The position numbers were made by a program, and so were the translations under genes. From the IMG/VR virus record IMGVR_UViG_2693429623_000020: a stretch of DNA of 9,840 bases; one strand, written 5' to 3'. This document shows positions 1,867 through 9,556 of the stretch, piece by piece. This stretch comes from a virus. Taxonomy: Duplodnaviria; Heunggongvirae; Uroviricota; Caudoviricetes. Each line of letters begins with the position of its first letter. Position 1 is the first letter of the stretch. Below the pieces are notes generated by a model, which saw only the letters and a program-made list of their open reading frames with translations, made no database searches and had not been told where the DNA came from.

Positions 1867-1883
1867 AGGGGAGCATATGACAT

Positions 1884-1913
1884 ATAAAACAAAGGCGACC
1901 GGGGGCGGTCGCC
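1884..1913 (-). terminator. Rho-independent terminator for the minus-strand operon
   Basis: Hairpin GGCGACCG-GGGG-CGGTCGCC (1894-1913); on the minus strand it is followed by TTTGTTTTAT. No U-run on the + strand. Confidence 0.55.
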
Positions 1914-1980
1914 AATGGATACACACTAAACTTGAACGCATCACCAACAATGCCACATTTGCGGCTGGTGGGCAATGTGA

Positions 1981-2160
1981 TCAGTCAGATTTGGTTCGTT
2001 CCAAGGTTTGCAACGAGAGCTTTTTCCTGTGCTCTTTAAGGAATTTCTCAAGAGCAAACGAACAAGGTGCGAATCTTTCTGATTCATGTTCATGCGCTAT
2101 ATTTTTGCGTCGTCTCTTACGAGTTGGTGATGGTGTTTTGGTTGATTCTGTGTCGCTCAT
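1981..2160 (-). CDS. Small basic hypothetical protein (59 aa), second gene of the divergent operon
   Basis: Minus-strand ORF below the ORF-track size cutoff, hand-translated as MSDTESTKTPSPTRKRRRKNIAHEHESERFAPCSFALEKFLKEHRKKLSLQTLERTKSD. AGGA lies 8-11 nt upstream of the ATG at 2160. It sits between the RHH gene and the minus-strand terminator. Confidence 0.4.
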   Translation of the reverse strand: MSDTESTKTPSPTRKRRRKNIAHEHESERFAPCSFALEKFLKEHRKKLSLQTLERTKSD

Positions 2161-2217
2161 GGTGCTGTCCTGTAAAGCAATGCGCCTGCGTTCCTCAAAC
2201 TATGGCGCTGATAGTGG

Positions 2218-2523
2218 CTATTCCTGCTCTTTGACCTTGCGTCGCTGGAGTTCTTCACGCGCGACGGTGACGAGTTGCCCGATCTCCTCGGCGGCTTTGA
2301 CTCCGATTTTTTCCACCTGCGCTAGGGCATCGAGCGAAGAAACCAGGAGGTTTTCTCCGCTTCCTTCTGCCTGGCGGCGGGCGATTTCACCGCGCATGGC
2401 GGTTACTATGAATCCGGCGTTGCTTTCACCGTCCAGTTTTACGGATTCCATGCCTTCAATAACATCATGCGGGATCCGAGCTGTCAGTGATTGTGATTTT
2501 GCGTTTTTTGAACCTGTAGCCAT
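2218..2523 (-). CDS. Ribbon-helix-helix (CopG/Arc/MetJ-like) putative transcriptional regulator, 101 aa
   Basis: N-terminal segment SLTARIPHDVIEGMESVKLDGESNAGFIVTAMRGEIARRQ has the strand-helix-helix pattern of RHH DNA-binding domains, followed by a charged helical tail. Start placed at the ATG at 2523 (GAGAGGA RBS 7 nt upstream) instead of the ORF-track start 2538. Divergent from the rightward genes. Confidence 0.6.
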   Translation of the reverse strand: MATGSKNAKSQSLTARIPHDVIEGMESVKLDGESNAGFIVTAMRGEIARRQAEGSGENLLVSSLDALAQVEKIGVKAAEEIGQLVTVAREELQRRKVKEQE

Positions 2524-2544
2524 CTGTAATCCTCTCAATGAAAG

Positions 2545-2621
2545 TGTAAGACAATATACACATAAAAAGTCTTACATAAAAGCATTGACATGTAAGCCAC
2601 CTATAAATAAAGTTACTTACA
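2545..2621. promoter_or_regulatory. Divergent promoter/operator region with four TGTAAG half-sites in two inverted pairs
   Basis: TGTAAG at 2545-2550 and 2591-2596; CTTACA at 2571-2576 and 2616-2621. TTGACA (2585-2590) and a -10-like TAAAGT (2608-2613) at 17-bp spacing lie between them. Sits between the divergent RHH gene and the rightward Icd-like gene. Confidence 0.45.
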
Positions 2622-2719
2622 CCTTGTTAATGCAAGGTGCAGAAACGACGAAACCCCGCACTGTAGGAGCAGTAACGGGGCTTCTAACCACCAACGATAG
2701 CAAGATTATCGAGGCAGCT

Positions 2720-2923
2720 ATGAGAAATCATACCATACACCCGCAAGGGCGGGACTCGTACAACCTGAATAAATACATCTGGCGTTTTATCGCCCTGAGC
2801 ACCGCACAACCGCGCGTGATTCACATCGTGGCCACCAGCGAACAGGAAGCACGCCAGCAATCCCCGGCTGGCTGCGTGATGGTATTCGCCGCCCGTATTC
2901 GTCAGGGGGTGTGCCATGCCTGA
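2720..2923 (+). CDS. Small protein resembling the host cell division inhibitor Icd-like family (67 aa)
   Basis: Only the 3' end of the 348-aa ORF-track entry is taken as coding, starting at the ATG at 2720 (GAGG 5 nt upstream). The pattern YIWRFIAL...ATSEQEARQQ....VMVFAARI resembles Icd-like small proteins of enterobacterial satellite prophages as I recall them; not verified by search. Confidence 0.45.
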   Translation: MRNHTIHPQGRDSYNLNKYIWRFIALSTAQPRVIHIVATSEQEARQQSPAGCVMVFAARIRQGVCHA

Positions 2924-3242: not shown

Positions 3243-3542
3243 ATGAGAACGTATTTATCTGGCTTGACTGCCAGCGGTTATGCACACCCCCAAATTATCC
3301 CCGGCGCTATTTATCTTGATAAGAACGGTAACAGAGTAACGGTAAAAGAACTGATGTTTGACCGTGTGTATTTTATTCGTGATGGCTATTCATTTCATAG
3401 TTCGCTGAACGTGGAGATCTTTATTAGCAGATTCAGGCGGGAAATCCCGCTTTCCAGAAATAACCATGTGTCACGTGTGGATGTGGATAAAAAACTACAG
3501 GAACTGAAAAACATGATTGCCGCGTGGAGAGAGCAGAAATGA
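3243..3542 (+). CDS. Hypothetical protein (99 aa), translationally coupled to the replication gene
   Basis: ORF whose stop overlaps the start of the next gene (ATGA at 3539-3542). No recognisable motif. Confidence 0.55.
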   Translation: MRTYLSGLTASGYAHPQIIPGAIYLDKNGNRVTVKELMFDRVYFIRDGYSFHSSLNVEIFISRFRREIPLSRNNHVSRVDVDKKLQELKNMIAAWREQK

Positions 3543-5356
3543 AAAAAGCGCCAAATTTAAAACACCAGCCGCGTGACAAAATGACGGAAGTCATCATTTT
3601 TGCGGGTAGTGATGCGTGGGCACATGCGAAACAGTGGCAGGAACAGGACGGGCGACTGGCTGGCGATAACGTGCCACCTGTCTGGCTTGGAGAGCAACAA
3701 CTTGTCGAACTGGACAACCTGCAAATCGTACCGGACGGACGCTATCGCGTGCGTCTCTATCAGGCGGGGTTATTGCGTCCGGGGCTTGTTAATACCATCG
3801 GGCAGAAACTGGCAGAGGCAGGTGTCAGGGATGCTGATTATTACCCTGAAGGAATGCACAGCCAGAAACGGGAGAACTGGCGTGAATATCTGGAACGTGA
3901 ACGGGCAGAGCTGGCGGAAAAGAAAAAGGTAGTTGAACTGCCTGTAAAGAAAAAAGAGCGGGTAAAAGACGATAACGCTTCATCACTGGCGCTTAACCAG
4001 ATGGGAGCAAGTCAACGCGGCGAAGTTCTCCTGGCACATTATGGCGGTGAACTGGCGATTCATGCTGACTCTGACACTGTTCACCATTACAACGGCATTG
4101 TATGGGAGCCAGTACAGGATAAAGAATTACAGCGAGCTATGGCGCAGATTTTCATTGATGCGGAGATCAGCTATTCGCAGAACGCCATTAAATCGGCGGT
4201 CGATACCATGAAGTTAAGTTTGCCTGTTATGGGGAATACAGCCCGTAACCTGATTGGATTCAGTAACGGGGTATTTGATACCAGAACAGGTAATTTTCGG
4301 GAGCATAACAAAAACGACTGGTTGTTAATTGCCAGTGAATTACCTTTCAGCCCACCAGCAGAGGGGGAAACGCTGGCAACACATGCGCCGAATTTCTGGA
4401 AGTGGTTACGCCGTTCGGTGGCTGAGAATGACCGCAAGGCGGATCGCGTACTGGCTGCATTATTCATGGTGCTGGCGAACCGGTACGACTGGCAGTTATT
4501 CATTGAGGTAACAGGTCCAGGGGGAAGTGGTAAAAGCGTGATGGCGGAGATTTGCACCATGCTGGCGGGTAAGGCCAACACAGTATCGGCAAGCATGAAG
4601 GCGCTGGAAGATGCAAGGGAACGCGCGTTAGTGGTTGGCTTTTCGCTGATTATCATGCCGGATATGACCCGCTACGCTGGTGATGGGGCAGGAATTAAGG
4701 CCATTACAGGCGGTGACAAGGTGGCAATTGACCCGAAACACAAAGCCCCCTACTCAACGCGTATTCCGGCAGTAGTGCTGGCGGTTAACAATAACGCCAT
4801 GTCATTCAGTGACCGCAGCGGGGGGATCTCACGTCGTCGGGTGATATTCAATTTTTCGGAAGTTGTACCGGAGAACGAACGCGATTCAATGCTGGCGGAA
4901 AAAATAGAAGGTGAGCTGGCGGTAGTGATTCGTCATCTGCTTACACGGTTTGCTGACCAGGACGAAGCCAGACGCCTTTTATATGAGCAGCAGAAATCAG
5001 AAGAAGCACTCGCGATAAAGCGTGAAGGTGATTCGCTGGTGGACTTCTGCGGCTATCTCATGGCGTCGGTAATGTGTGATGGCCTGTTAGTGGGTAATGC
5101 TGAAATTGTGCCATTCAGCCCGCGCAGGTATCTCTATCATGCCTATCTGGCTTATATGAAGGCACATGGGTTTGGTAAACCTGTAACACTGACGCGCTTC
5201 GGTAAAGATATGCCGGGGGCAATGGCGGAATATGGCAGGGAGTATATGAAACGGAAAACGAAGCACGGTTTGCGTTCAAACGTGACACTGACGGAGGAAT
5301 CAGAAGACTGGATGCCATCATGTGTATCGGTCACTAATGACGATAGCAAAAATTAA
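3539..5356 (+). CDS. Replication initiator, P4-alpha-like C-terminal region (D5_N-like plus SF3 helicase P-loop NTPase), 605 aa
   Basis: Walker A motif EVTGPGGSGKS; the surrounding NGVFD..TG...EH and FW.WL.R context is typical of the phage/plasmid primase P4-family C-terminal domain. Start set at the ATG at 3539 (ATGA overlap, GGAGAG RBS) rather than the track start 3524. A canonical primase domain is not obvious in the N-terminal 250 aa. Confidence 0.85.
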   Translation: MKKAPNLKHQPRDKMTEVIIFAGSDAWAHAKQWQEQDGRLAGDNVPPVWLGEQQLVELDNLQIVPDGRYRVRLYQAGLLRPGLVNTIGQKLAEAGVRDADYYPEGMHSQKRENWREYLERERAELAEKKKVVELPVKKKERVKDDNASSLALNQMGASQRGEVLLAHYGGELAIHADSDTVHHYNGIVWEPVQDKELQRAMAQIFIDAEISYSQNAIKSAVDTMKLSLPVMGNTARNLIGFSNGVFDTRTGNFREHNKNDWLLIASELPFSPPAEGETLATHAPNFWKWLRRSVAENDRKADRVLAALFMVLANRYDWQLFIEVTGPGGSGKSVMAEICTMLAGKANTVSASMKALEDARERALVVGFSLIIMPDMTRYAGDGAGIKAITGGDKVAIDPKHKAPYSTRIPAVVLAVNNNAMSFSDRSGGISRRRVIFNFSEVVPENERDSMLAEKIEGELAVVIRHLLTRFADQDEARRLLYEQQKSEEALAIKREGDSLVDFCGYLMASVMCDGLLVGNAEIVPFSPRRYLYHAYLAYMKAHGFGKPVTLTRFGKDMPGAMAEYGREYMKRKTKHGLRSNVTLTEESEDWMPSCVSVTNDDSKN

Positions 5357-5369
5357 ACTTATGGAATAA

Positions 5370-5592
5370 CTGTTCACCACTGTTCACCCTGTCATAAATA
5401 TCTTTTGTATCAGTATGTTATAGGGTGAACAGTTATTTATGAACTGTTCACCAAACTATTCACTGTTCACCTTTTTGATTGTTTATTGAGCTTCAAGGGT
5501 GAACAGTGGTGAACAGTTGGTGAATAGTTTTTGTGAAACTGTTCACCCCTTAACATTATGAATTAAAAGATAAAATATCAAAAGGTGAACAG
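5370..5592. repeat. Replication origin: at least nine 9-bp iterons CTGTTCACC / GGTGAACAG in both orientations in an AT-rich background
   Basis: CTGTTCACC at 5370, 5380, 5444, 5463, 5539; GGTGAACAG at 5424, 5498, 5508, 5584; degenerate copies near 5454 and 5518. The core TGTTCACC is the type I iteron bound by P4 alpha (from memory). Located directly after the alpha-like gene. Confidence 0.8.
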
Positions 5593-5643
5593 GTGAAGGG
5601 TTAAAACGCAAAAATTTTAATTTACTGCTGTGAGATAAAGCCT

Positions 5644-5889
5644 ATGACAGCGAAGCACACAAAAAAATCACAATCGCACGCCCTTGATTTGACGGAACAC
5701 TGGTTAAGGGTGTCGATAAAAATCATCGACCGCAACGCCGGGGAAGGATATGCGAAAGCACATCCCGAACTGATTAGCTCATTCATGACAACGGCAGCTG
5801 CAAACTTTGCCACGCTGACAGAACGGGAGATTGCCGAAGCGGAACAGGTGACAACCATCAACGTTAAAACCGGAGAGCAGACAGCATGA
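5644..5889 (+). CDS. Hypothetical protein (81 aa)
   Basis: ORF whose stop overlaps the start of the SSB-like gene (ATGA at 5886-5889). Weak RBS; no recognisable motif. Confidence 0.45.
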   Translation: MTAKHTKKSQSHALDLTEHWLRVSIKIIDRNAGEGYAKAHPELISSFMTTAAANFATLTEREIAEAEQVTTINVKTGEQTA

Positions 5890-6269
5890 CAGCACAGATA
5901 GCGGCTTACGGGCGGCTGGTGGCTGACCCGCAGTTAAAGACCACCAGCAAGGGTACACAAATGACGATGGCGAGTATGGCGGTCCCACTTCCGTGCAGCC
6001 AGGCAGATGACGGAACGGCGACGATGTGGTTATCCGTCCTGGCGTTTGGCAGACAGGCCGAAGCACTGGCAAAGCACCGCAAGGGCGAACTCCTGAGCGT
6101 GGCGGGTAACATGCAGGTGAGCCAGTGGACCGGACAGAACGGGGAGACGCGGCAGGGCTGGCAGGTTATCGCAGACAGCGTAATCAGTGCGAGAACGGCG
6201 CGACCGGGCGGCAAAAAAGGCCAACAGGCGGGAAATGATGATCCGTACGGGGATAACATACCGTTTTAA
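5886..6269 (+). CDS. ssb: Single-stranded DNA-binding protein-like (OB fold with SSB-type acidic C-terminal tip), 127 aa
   Basis: Ends in DDPYGDNIPF (E. coli SSB ends DDDIPF). The core pattern G.L..DP...W..V..FG..AE.....KG....V.G.......W....G..R matches the SSB OB fold. Confidence 0.65.
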   Translation: MTAQIAAYGRLVADPQLKTTSKGTQMTMASMAVPLPCSQADDGTATMWLSVLAFGRQAEALAKHRKGELLSVAGNMQVSQWTGQNGETRQGWQVIADSVISARTARPGGKKGQQAGNDDPYGDNIPF

Positions 6270-6525: not shown

Positions 6526-6568
6526 GAGTTGCCTGTGTCAAAACGTGTTCAGATGGCGGGATATTTAT

Positions 6569-6591
6569 GCCGGATTTTATCCGGCTTTTTT
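6569..6591 (+). terminator. Intrinsic terminator-like hairpin inside the capsid-operon leader
   Basis: GCCGGA-TTTTA-TCCGGC followed by TTTTTT; about 100 bp upstream of the capsid-operon start. Confidence 0.5.
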
Positions 6592-6693: not shown

Positions 6694-6900
6694 GTGAGTT
6701 GTATTAATGACCTGAACACGGGCGATATCAGGGGTGGTTCCGTTCATCTGGATGCGCAGACCGTTATGCGCCTTAAGCAGTACAGGATCGACCATATAAA
6801 TCATCATCCTGACAAACCATTACCAGGTGTGGCGCAGATTGTCAGACATGCCGTAAACACCTGGCTTAATCAGAATGGTTTTGCATCGGTGGGGGAATAA
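6694..6900 (+). CDS. Small RHH-like putative DNA-binding protein (68 aa), first gene of the capsid operon
   Basis: GTG start with AGAGGAAG RBS. SVHLDAQTVMRLKQY...VAQIVRHAVNTWLNQ fits a strand-helix-helix pattern. Its stop overlaps the start of the capsid gene (TAATG). Confidence 0.5.
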   Translation: MSCINDLNTGDIRGGSVHLDAQTVMRLKQYRIDHINHHPDKPLPGVAQIVRHAVNTWLNQNGFASVGE

Positions 6901-8813
6901 TGAATCGCTGGTACACCATTAAGGCGGCGGATGTTCGTGGAGCGGCGGATATATCTATCTATGAGGAGATTGGCGGCTTCGGTGTTACTGCAAAGCAGTT
7001 CGCGGAAGACCTGAAAGCCCTTGGCGATGTTTCACATATCAATCTGAGGATCCATTCACCAGGTGGTGATGTGTTTGAAGGCATCGCCATCTATAACCTG
7101 CTACGGAATCATCCGGCAGACATTACGGTTTATATCGATGGTGTTGCGGCTTCAATGGCTTCGGTGGTCGCAATGGCTGGCGATCGTGTAGTGATGCCGG
7201 AGAACGCCATGATGATGATCCATAAACCGTGGGGGATCTCTGGCGGAAATGCTGGCGATATGCGTGATTATGCTGATTTGCTGGATAAGGTGGAAACCGT
7301 GTTAATCCCTGCTTATGCCAGAAAAACGGGCAAATCAGCACAGGAAATTACCGCCATGCTGGAGGATGAAACCTGGATGGATGGGAAAGAATGCCTTAAG
7401 CACGGTTTTGCTGATGAATTGTTGCCATCCGTCAGAGCAATGGCGCGAATTGAATCGAAACGCACAGGAGATTTTTTACATATGCCGGAAACCATTAAAG
7501 GAATGATTACACCGCCACAGGGAGCGGCAAATATTGCTGGTAATGAACAGAAGCGCATCAATGGAATAAGTGAAGTGTTTAGCCTGTTCGGCAGTCGTTA
7601 CGACGGGATCAAAATGGCGTGTCTGGAAGATGCATCATGTACACCGGAAATGGCCCGTGAAAAGCTGTTGAACGAGCTGGGGCGCGAGTCCACGCCATCC
7701 AATAAAAATACCCCGCCTCATATCTATGCTGGAAACGGAAACATAACAGGTGATGCAATTCGTCAGGGGCTTTATTCCCGTCTTGGGTATGAACGGCCTG
7801 AACGAGGCAACCCTTACGCGATGATGAGTCTTTTTGAAATGGCCCAGGCATCACTGGTTGATCGTGGTATCACTGTGAGCGGTTTTATTAATCGCTCGCA
7901 GGTTGTTAATGCGGCTTTTACACACAGCAGCAGTGATTTTTCTCATATTCTGGCTGGTGGGGCTGAAAAATCTGTACTGAAAGGCTGGCAGGACAGCGGC
8001 GAAACGTTCCAGAAATGGACGCGTACCGGTTCGCTTTCAAACTTTCATGAAGCAAAGCGCGTTGGTCTGAATGGTTTTTCAAAGCTGGATAAAGTACCGG
8101 AAGGTGCGGAATATAAATACATCACCACCAGCGATAAAGGTGTACCTATTGCGCTGGCCACGTACGGGAATATATTTTCCGTTACCCGTCAGGCCATTAT
8201 CAACGATGACCTGACCCAGTTAACTACAATCCCCATGGCGATGGGACGCGCAGCTGCCAGAACAGTTGGCAATCTGGTTTATCTCCTGTTAACCAGCAAC
8301 GGCAAGTTTACGGATGGTAAAGCGTTATTCCATGCCGATCATAAAAATCTTATTGCGAAGGATATGGACATGGAGGGGCTTAACGAAGCCCGTAAGCTGA
8401 TGCGCCTCCAGGAAGACGCTAACGGCGATTCGCTGAATATTACCCCTGCATTTGTCCTGGTCCCCGCCGCGCTGGAGTCTGCCGCACATCGCGCCATTCT
8501 GTCATCGTCATCACTCTTTCCGGTTGATGGCGTGGGCACTATCAATCAGAACCCCGGCATCATTAACGTGGTGAAAGATATGGCGGAGGTAATCGTTGAG
8601 CCACGTCTTGATAAAGCCAATAACAAGGAGTGGTATGTGGCAGCGGCGAAGGGTATGGACACGATAGAGGTCGCTTATCTTGATGGTATTGATACGCCAT
8701 ATCTTGAGGAGCAGGAGGGCTTTACTGTTGATGGCGTCGCCTGGAAGGTGCGCATAGATGCAGGTGTAGCGGCCCTCGACTATCGCGGATTACTGAAATC
8801 GAGTGGAGCATGA
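6900..8813 (+). CDS. ClpP-like (S14) prohead protease fused to an HK97-fold major capsid protein (637 aa)
   Basis: N-terminal about 190 aa contain DGVAASMASVVAMAG and MMIHKPWGISGG, matching the ClpP active-site Ser and His motifs (GQAASMGAF / MIHQPLGG). The C-terminal 350 aa (..TIEVAYLDG..FTVDGVAWKVRIDAGVAALDYRG) resemble HK97-like major capsid proteins. GGGGGAA RBS. Confidence 0.85.
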   Translation: MNRWYTIKAADVRGAADISIYEEIGGFGVTAKQFAEDLKALGDVSHINLRIHSPGGDVFEGIAIYNLLRNHPADITVYIDGVAASMASVVAMAGDRVVMPENAMMMIHKPWGISGGNAGDMRDYADLLDKVETVLIPAYARKTGKSAQEITAMLEDETWMDGKECLKHGFADELLPSVRAMARIESKRTGDFLHMPETIKGMITPPQGAANIAGNEQKRINGISEVFSLFGSRYDGIKMACLEDASCTPEMAREKLLNELGRESTPSNKNTPPHIYAGNGNITGDAIRQGLYSRLGYERPERGNPYAMMSLFEMAQASLVDRGITVSGFINRSQVVNAAFTHSSSDFSHILAGGAEKSVLKGWQDSGETFQKWTRTGSLSNFHEAKRVGLNGFSKLDKVPEGAEYKYITTSDKGVPIALATYGNIFSVTRQAIINDDLTQLTTIPMAMGRAAARTVGNLVYLLLTSNGKFTDGKALFHADHKNLIAKDMDMEGLNEARKLMRLQEDANGDSLNITPAFVLVPAALESAAHRAILSSSSLFPVDGVGTINQNPGIINVVKDMAEVIVEPRLDKANNKEWYVAAAKGMDTIEVAYLDGIDTPYLEEQEGFTVDGVAWKVRIDAGVAALDYRGLLKSSGA

Positions 8814-8917: not shown

Positions 8918-9070
8918 TCGTCATCATCATCTTCATATTGTATTGAATTTTAAGTATTTTTATTTTTGGTATGTTAATTTTGCTTGTTTTATGCTCAACA
9001 TATAGCGCATTTTTTGACCTCTTCTGAAAGTTGTTCGCAAGATGCATGTTTAAAACATTCTGGAGCGGGT

Positions 9071-9556
9071 ATGGATCGAGAACTGAAAAATCTGATGCTG
9101 AACATTAATCAACTGGCGGCGATAGCGGGAATATGTCGTCAGACTGCGGCGGCAAGGCTGAAAAACATCCAGCCAGCCGGAGGGCATGACAAGCTGAAAC
9201 TCTATCGGGTGACTGACATTCTGACCTGTTTTCTTGATCTTCCCGTTCCGGCATCACTGGAAGAAATGGAGCCACATGACCGTAAGGCCTGGTATCAGTC
9301 CGAACGTGAACGCCTCAAGTTCGAACAGGAAACGGCGCAACTCATACCCGCCGATGATGTGCGAAAAGAGATGGCTATATGGGGAGAAATCGTAAGCGAG
9401 GAACTGGCAAAACTCCCCAATATTCTGGCACGTGATGCCGGGCTTAAACCGATGGCAGTAAACAGAGTGCAGTCAATTATTGACGATTTGTGTAATCAGA
9501 TTATCAGCCGGATGGTAAAAAATGACGTAGTGAATGAGGTCGCAAAACAGGCATGA
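9071..9556 (+). CDS. Terminase small subunit-like protein (lambda Nu1-like N-terminal winged HTH), 161 aa
   Basis: Start at the internal ATG 9071 (GGAG 5 nt upstream). LNINQLAAIAGICRQTAAARLKNIQPAGGHDKLKLYRVTDILTCF parallels Nu1 VNKKQLADIFGASIRTIQNWQEQGMPVLRGGGKGNEVLYDSAAVIKWY, and it sits just downstream of a cos-like site. It could instead be a packaging-redirection factor (Rpp-like). Confidence 0.6.
   Translation: MDRELKNLMLNINQLAAIAGICRQTAAARLKNIQPAGGHDKLKLYRVTDILTCFLDLPVPASLEEMEPHDRKAWYQSERERLKFEQETAQLIPADDVRKEMAIWGEIVSEELAKLPNILARDAGLKPMAVNRVQSIIDDLCNQIISRMVKNDVVNEVAKQA

Follow-up and report, generated by a model that had tools for sequence, protein, structure and literature searches.

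A head-to-head array of P4 type I iterons 3' of an alpha-like rep gene as the probable replication origin of an Escherichia coli PICI

Gene content of the island and the iteron array 3' of rep

The stretch of DNA analysed here (9,840 bp; henceforth the window) belongs to a phage-inducible chromosomal island (PICI) and not to a P4-like satellite. Its genes follow each other in the order tyrosine integrase, AlpA, YlcI/YnfO, Icd-like, DUF4222, Rep, the putative origin, an 81-aa ORF and SSB, and then a ClpP-protease/major-capsid fusion and a DUF1441 protein (the names YlcI and Icd-like are taken from the RefSeq annotation). The int and alpA genes, the unidirectional transcription, the size of about 10 kb and a PICI-specific att site are all those of a PICI, and the P4 genes sid, delta and psu are not present in the element. 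E. coli A1_181 has a 10.6-kb island that matches the whole window at 98% identity, is flanked by ATGATAGTTAT repeats and lies between cspD/yljB and clpS. This cspD-clpS att site has been assigned to the PICIs EcCIIHE3034 and EcCI18098 (Table S1, PMC6092414).

Several further features of the island were recorded. The mechanical ORF list has a 348-aa ORF at 1877-2923 (+) that is unlikely to be a gene: in this area RefSeq places YlcI/YnfO on the opposite strand (~2218-2538) and a short Icd-like gene (~2722-2925). Short tandem repeats occur in two AT-rich intergenic regions, namely AATATCTGAA (x2.7, 1292-1318) between int and alpA and GGATTTTATGCC (x2.6, 6559-6589) upstream of the capsid operon, and both may be operator or arm-type sites. 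The capsid module comprises a 637-aa fusion of a ClpP-like prohead protease with an HK97-type major capsid protein (6900-8813) and, at 8984-9556, the DUF1441 protein, which matches a family of small terminase subunits; the window contains neither a portal gene nor one for a large terminase. At the position of the capsid module EcCICFT073 and EcCIIHE3034 encode a capsid-like protein on its own and, in addition, a head-decoration homologue. The island SSB, whose gene occupies the same position in EcCICFT073, EcCIIHE3034 and the islands L004 and L005, is likely an accessory of the replication module. It has 127 aa here as against 140 aa in the otherwise 98-99% identical islands E10 and A1_181, and this 39-bp length polymorphism of ssb accounts for BLAST alignments that come in two pieces.

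Table 1. Features of the rep gene, the putative origin and ssb in the 9,840-bp window
Feature	Coordinates	Strand	Description
rep ('pri-rep')	3539..5356	+	605 aa; alpha-like SF3 helicase and initiator
TOPRIM-like N-terminal domain of Rep	3539..3930	+	~130 aa
SF3 ATPase core of Rep	4511..4882	+	Walker A GPGGSGKS; Pfam DUF5906, PPV_E1_C at residues 329-453
Winged-helix origin-binding domain of Rep	5027..5317	+	wing KRKTKHGLRSNVTL
Left arm	5367..5471		iterons 5371+, 5381+, 5424-, 5445+, 5456+ (degenerate), 5464+
Left-arm spacer	5389-5423		35 bp, 74% AT
Central spacer	5472..5497		26 bp, 73% AT; symmetry axis between the arms
Right arm	5498..5603		iterons 5498-, 5508-, 5519- (degenerate), 5540+, 5584-, 5592- (degenerate)
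Right-arm spacer	5548-5583		36 bp, 83% AT
A/T tract AAAAATTTTAATTTAC	5609..5625		directly right of the last iteron; kept across genera (origin alignment)
Island SSB	5886..6269	+	two genes downstream of the putative origin; Pfam SSB E = 6e-16, PHROG 44

The first-pass annotation had described at least nine iteron copies in both orientations over about 220 bp of AT-rich DNA directly after the replicase gene, and each part of this description is borne out. An exact search of the window for the octamer TGTTCACC returned ten copies, the expectation from dinucleotide-preserving shuffles being 0.34 copies per window (the shuffle maximum was 2, and ten or more copies were seen in 0 of 200 shuffles). 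Nine of the ten fall within 223 bp, with five on the plus and four on the minus strand (the sites not marked as degenerate in Table 1), and the 9-mer CTGTTCACC is present at every one of them. A search that tolerated mismatches added three degenerate sites at mirror-image positions, CTATTCACT at 5456 (+), CTATTCACC at 5519 (-) and CCCTTCACC at 5592 (-), which brings the array to 12 sites within 5370-5600. All are copies, exact or degenerate, of one sequence, (A/C)ACTGTTCACC, which is the type I iteron of P4. The first iteron begins after a gap of 13 bp from the end of the rep stop codon at 5356, the GC content of the region is 34-36% as opposed to about 50% in the neighbouring genes, and no ORF of at least 50 aa was found on either strand of 5357-5621.

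The tenth exact copy lies within the rep coding sequence (4077-4085, +; octamer at 4078), where it faces an inverted partner with one mismatch at 4046-4054 (-). This pair is present in the near-identical E10 island; we considered it as a second site and rejected it as probably due to chance, given the number of copies expected per window and its absence from the rep genes of L004 and L005. Searches in and around the array found no DnaA boxes, IHF sites or GATC cluster, which leaves the iterons and the AT-richness as the sole origin hallmarks; sigma-70 promoter and intrinsic terminator consensus sequences and matches to Rfam families were likewise not found in and around it. A full-text literature search on TGTTCACC yielded nothing but unrelated primer lists.

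The 12 iterons are arranged with mirror symmetry around position ~5485, the left arm reading + + (43) - (21) + + + and the right arm - - - (21) + (44) - -, with start-to-start spacings across the whole array of 10, 43, 21, 11, 8, 34, 10, 11, 21, 44 and 8. The sites are in helical phase with a period of 10.6 bp (R = 0.89, equalled in 0.08% of random placements), which would put most of them on one face of the helix. The symmetry reaches beyond the iterons, since the two arms are 75% complementary across 56 nt (alignment I1); as single-stranded DNA, 5367-5603 is predicted to fold into a single long imperfect hairpin (-57.8 kcal/mol, z = -8 against shuffles) with the central spacer at its apex. 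This spacer is the least conserved part of the putative origin, yet it is T/A-rich in relatives, and it is a candidate melting site. The right-hand A/T tract is conserved and might serve either as another site of unwinding or as part of a promoter of orf81-ssb; a search of it for a sigma-70 consensus was negative.

Rep, a P4 alpha-like helicase with a degenerate TOPRIM-like domain

The mechanical ORF list starts rep at GTG 3524 (610 aa), whereas PGAP uses the 605-aa form in near-identical genomes; the start codon of the latter (ATG, 3539) and the stop codon of the preceding DUF4222 gene overlap. The protein matches D5_N, DUF5906 and Pox_D5 in Pfam and TIGR01613 in NCBIfam, and its residues 150-600 are 50% identical to residues 320-771 of P4 alpha. 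The Walker A motif of the helicase core is invariant in alignment A2, and the core is homologous to that of the PriRep of SaPI5 (PDB 7OLA, E = 2.6e-10). Residues 502-598 match the solved origin-binding domain of P4 alpha (PDB 1KA8) with E = 1.5e-24 in phmmer.

The N-terminal region of about 130 aa has no Pfam match but resembles the DnaG-type TOPRIM domain in fold, and MAFFT places it on the TOPRIM region of alpha. No counterpart of alpha residues 1 to ~190, which contain the CxxC zinc motifs, aligns in Rep, and the catalytic EG and DxD have become AG and AGL, with both substitutions invariant across the family. This N-terminus is probably an inactive TOPRIM-like relic, and, as Rep is devoid of the zinc finger, the catalytic Glu and the DxD, priming is probably carried out by the host.

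The same N-terminal domain, in which the motif TEVIIFAGSDAW.HAK is invariant (P0017, P0018, P0026, P0075, P0081 and P0083), occurs in E. coli islands in fusions with at least four different kinds of downstream module. One is the P4-alpha-type SF3 helicase and another the EcCICFT073-type helicase; further ones are RepA/AAA_25 (PF13481) helicases and a type marked by 'GVFWVTPK...'. The occurrence of the domain on such varied modules suggests a portable module with a role of its own, such as the recruitment of a host factor or primase; being common to PICI Reps with unrelated helicase modules, the degenerate TOPRIM may specifically be a domain that recruits the host primase.

Relationship to P4 and covariation of iterons with the Rep wing

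In the GenBank record of P4 (X51522), 'ori type 1 repeat' is annotated 16 times; the six instances within the P4 ori are all exactly TGTTCACC. In the same record, the 'cis required region for replication' (crr) directly follows the alpha gene, at a distance of 4.5 kb from ori; it consists of two 120-bp units and holds further type 1 copies, some of them degenerate. P4 alpha binds the type I iterons, with which both this annotation and PDB 1KA8 are consistent. In blastn, positions 5493-5565 of the window are 78.7% identical to P4 ori 9304-9378, and the right-arm iteron spacing of 10/11/21/44 is collinear with the 10/11/22/43 of P4 ori. A five-way alignment (A1) of the left arm, the reverse-complemented right arm, the reverse-complemented P4 ori and both crr units resolves all of them into one unit, which begins with a tandem pair of iterons and, after ~35 bp of AT-rich spacer, continues with an iteron in inverted orientation and then with further ones. 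The putative origin therefore consists of two units of the P4 ori/crr type, which meet head to head at the 26-bp AT-rich centre.

Thus, the window and P4 share an identical iteron core, a unit to which either arm, the P4 ori and each crr unit all belong, an iteron cluster directly 3' of the initiator gene, and initiators (47-50% identical) that are both SF3 helicases with a C-terminal winged-helix origin-binding domain. The differences lie in the arrangement and in the complement of parts. P4 needs two separate cis elements ~4.5 kb apart, whereas the window has a single compact locus with two adjacent inverted units; the crr of P4 is a direct duplication of the unit, whereas the units of the window form a head-to-head palindrome. 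Type II decamer repeats accompany the type I cluster in P4 ori, but a search of the window for them (YCAYTTAAAG, one mismatch allowed) gave only chance-level matches, none of which is near the putative origin. Finally, alpha has a zinc finger and an active DnaG-type primase, as opposed to the degenerate TOPRIM-like remnant of Rep. More speculatively, the fused head-to-head layout might be a compact, ancestral form of the split ori and crr requirement of P4, a long-standing puzzle.

We surveyed relatives at 80 loci, with one genome per GTDB species. Across them, the 470 bp that follow the rep stop codon on its 3' side hold 226 copies of TGTTCACC, as against 25 in the other 538 kb, a 131-fold ratio of densities; at least two copies are found 3' of rep in 60 of the 80 loci. 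P4-like elements of Xenorhabdus and Photorhabdus with a full-length alpha also have iterons 3' of the gene. When the origins are aligned end to end, the order and orientation of the sites are constant in Escherichia, Klebsiella, Kluyvera and Raoultella, and likewise in Pluralibacter, Citrobacter, Pectobacterium and Serratia, with column conservation of 0.92 in the iterons versus 0.73 in the spacers (Mann-Whitney p = 2e-12). The number of iterons varies slightly, L005 having one copy more.

Loci without TGTTCACC have another repeat at the equivalent place, together with an altered beta-hairpin 'wing' of the binding domain. The wing KR(K/H)TKxG(I/L)(R/Q)(S/T)N goes with TGTTCACC in the window, P4, L003, L009 and L017; CTKGPDKGRxI(T/S)N, which has a 5-residue insertion, goes with TGTCTACC in L011, L016 and L024; ESKKKATRGRIQSN goes with TGTCCGCC in L023; and STKGNMRSN goes with TCTCCACC in L022. 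Another alternative iteron, TGTATACC, occurs at the same site in relatives with an altered wing, and additional iteron types are present in L082, L083 and L080. The binding domains of the L011 type are 67-68% identical to that of the window and that of P4 only 47%, yet it is the L011-type iteron that differs. The closer domain thus goes with another iteron and the more distant one with the same iteron, which indicates that specificity tracks the wing and not the overall similarity.

A comparison with EcCIIHE3034 reveals how these parts move. This island uses the same att site as the one studied here, and the two are 91% identical in DNA over int and alpA and 84% over the orf81-ssb region; between them, however, 3883-5678, which runs from the helicase through the binding domain to the putative origin, gives no DNA alignment except for one 72-bp stretch. 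The N-terminal domain of Rep still aligns at 67%. The helicase, the binding domain and the origin are therefore swapped between islands as one module, in which the origin travels with the domain proposed to read its iterons. The first-pass annotation had identified the iteron core with that bound by P4 alpha, and had used this to tie an alpha-like protein with no evident canonical primase domain to the site. The core proves to be the annotated P4 repeat, the likeness to alpha holds over both the helicase and the C-terminus, and the tie between protein and site gains from the covariation of iteron type with the wing and from the exchange of helicase, binding domain and origin as a block; the statement on the primase stands, with the refinement that the N-terminus is TOPRIM-like.

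Sequences matching the putative origin are present in 687 of 5,426 complete E. coli genomes (~13%), and 182 of those matches are at least 99% identical. Positive genomes have a median of two matching places and up to 12, so that replicons with the TGTTCACC iteron often co-reside in one cell; the partial matches include the ori of the P4-like prophages L006 and L007. A homologous origin (74.8% identity) also follows a 'DNA primase' gene in vB_KppS-Ant, which encodes a capsid and was derived from particles.

Origin function, alternative readings and wider implications

The SF3 initiators SV40 large T and papillomavirus E1 assemble as head-to-head double hexamers on inverted-repeat sites next to AT-rich DNA that melts readily. 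The palindrome of the window fits the logic of these eukaryotic viruses, although the likeness is mechanistic only: their origin-binding domains and site sequences are unrelated to those described here. Closer precedents come from other satellites. Origins of such a layout are known from earlier work on E. coli PICIs (Fillol-Salom et al. 2018, PMC6092414), and the rep and origin region of EcCICFT073 maintains a temperature-sensitive plasmid, whereas rep or origin deletions do not (PMC6092414). EcCICFT073 has the same series of int, alpA, DUF4222, rep, origin, small ORF, ssb and capsid-related module, the same Rep N-terminal domain and the same origin layout, ++ .. - .. +++ followed by -- .. 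+ .. --, directly 3' of rep. It differs in its iteron (CTGTCTACC versus CTGTTCACC in the window), in a Rep that is only 48.7% identical and has a different helicase and binding-domain module, and in having a capsid protein and a decoration protein where the window has the ClpP-capsid fusion. The Reps of SaPIs are self-loading helicases, whose winged-helix domains bind iterons on either side of an AT-rich centre 3' of rep (Qiao et al. 2022, PMC9371898). The position of the origin immediately 3' of rep, the opposed iterons on either side of an AT-rich region and the C-terminal winged-helix reader on a hexameric self-loading helicase with a homologous core are common to SaPIs and the window. In contrast, SaPI iterons are of 5-6 bp and unrelated in sequence to those of the window, the SaPI primases are separate or fused proteins rather than TOPRIM remnants, and the host range is another one.

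Taken together, we consider it highly probable that 5367-5603 is the vegetative replication origin of the PICI integrated at cspD-clpS of E. coli. This reading draws on the statistics of the array, the identity of its iteron with that of P4, the homology of the units, their symmetry and phasing and the alpha-like nature of Rep; on conservation across genera, the position 3' of rep, the covariation with the wing and the exchange as a module; and on the plasmid precedent of EcCICFT073 (PMC6092414) and the SaPI blueprint (PMC9371898). PICI origins are a known kind of element, and the present allele is one that combines the P4 type I iteron with an alpha-type binding domain.

The strongest caution comes from P4 itself. 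There, the iterons that come directly after alpha are those of crr, which assists in cis and is not ori, so that position alone is no proof of an origin; the left arm aligns with the crr units, and the iterons of Xenorhabdus and Photorhabdus lie 3' of a full-length alpha in P4-like elements. The cluster might then be only a crr-like cis-acting enhancer, with the true start elsewhere in the island, but we give this little credence: the window holds no second iteron cluster, just the stray copy at 4078, the right arm is collinear with the P4 ori itself at 78.7% identity, and the homologous rep and 3' region of EcCICFT073 are enough to maintain a plasmid (PMC6092414). We regard it as just as improbable that the iterons mainly serve regulation or copy control, either as Rep operators acting on read-through into orf81-ssb or as handcuffing and incompatibility sites. 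What speaks for such a role is that rep, the putative origin, orf81 and ssb share one orientation, that neither a terminator nor a promoter is predicted to separate them, and that at least two such clusters are often found per genome. A second role in copy control is, moreover, common among plasmid iterons. However, the array has the features of an origin in its helical phasing, in its two symmetric arms with AT-rich DNA between them and in its homology with the mapped P4 ori, and a regulatory role would supplement origin function and not substitute for it.

It is also conceivable, in principle, that the cluster is a packaging site (pac or cos) read by the small-terminase-like protein of the island, given that satellites need a packaging signal and that a DUF1441 protein of the small-terminase family is encoded at hand. 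We see hardly any likelihood in this, because the repeat is the iteron bound by alpha and covaries with the binding domain of Rep rather than with the terminase module; origins of the same type occur alongside quite different packaging modules in L003, L004 and L005, and 3.4 kb separate the cluster from the terS-like gene.

If 5367-5603 is the origin, as we favour, replication may be envisaged as follows. After induction by a helper phage and excision, Rep would bind the iterons via its C-terminal winged-helix domain and oligomerise on the two oppositely oriented arms. It would then melt adjacent AT-rich DNA, for which the centre, the spacers within the arms and the right-hand A/T tract are candidates, and load itself as two opposed SF3 hexamers for bidirectional theta replication. 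Primers would be supplied by the host primase, host Pol III would join, and the island SSB would coat the unwound DNA. In this scheme we infer the binding of Rep to the iterons, the site of melting, the loading of a double hexamer and the source of the primers.

The identical type I iteron and the same wing motif in Rep and P4 alpha raise the more speculative and, in our estimate, rather unlikely possibility that P4-like and PICI satellites share initiator specificity, which might lead to cross-activation or interference between co-resident satellites. If so, the alpha of a P4-like element would fire or titrate a PICI origin, and the Rep of a PICI would do likewise on P4 origins.

In terms of what they add, these observations are incremental and leave the current understanding of such elements standing; the additions are the palindromic fusion of units, the wing-iteron series, the degenerate TOPRIM module and the possible cross-talk with P4. 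For annotation, they mark the origin and the cognate initiator of a widespread family of E. coli PICIs. An SF3 self-loading helicase that has been stripped of the primase catalytic residues poses the question of priming, and the matched wings and iterons offer a natural set from which the specificity of alpha-type initiators could be decoded or re-engineered. With regard to P4, the separate ori and crr are two copies of one unit that PICIs keep fused, which should make the role of crr easier to test.
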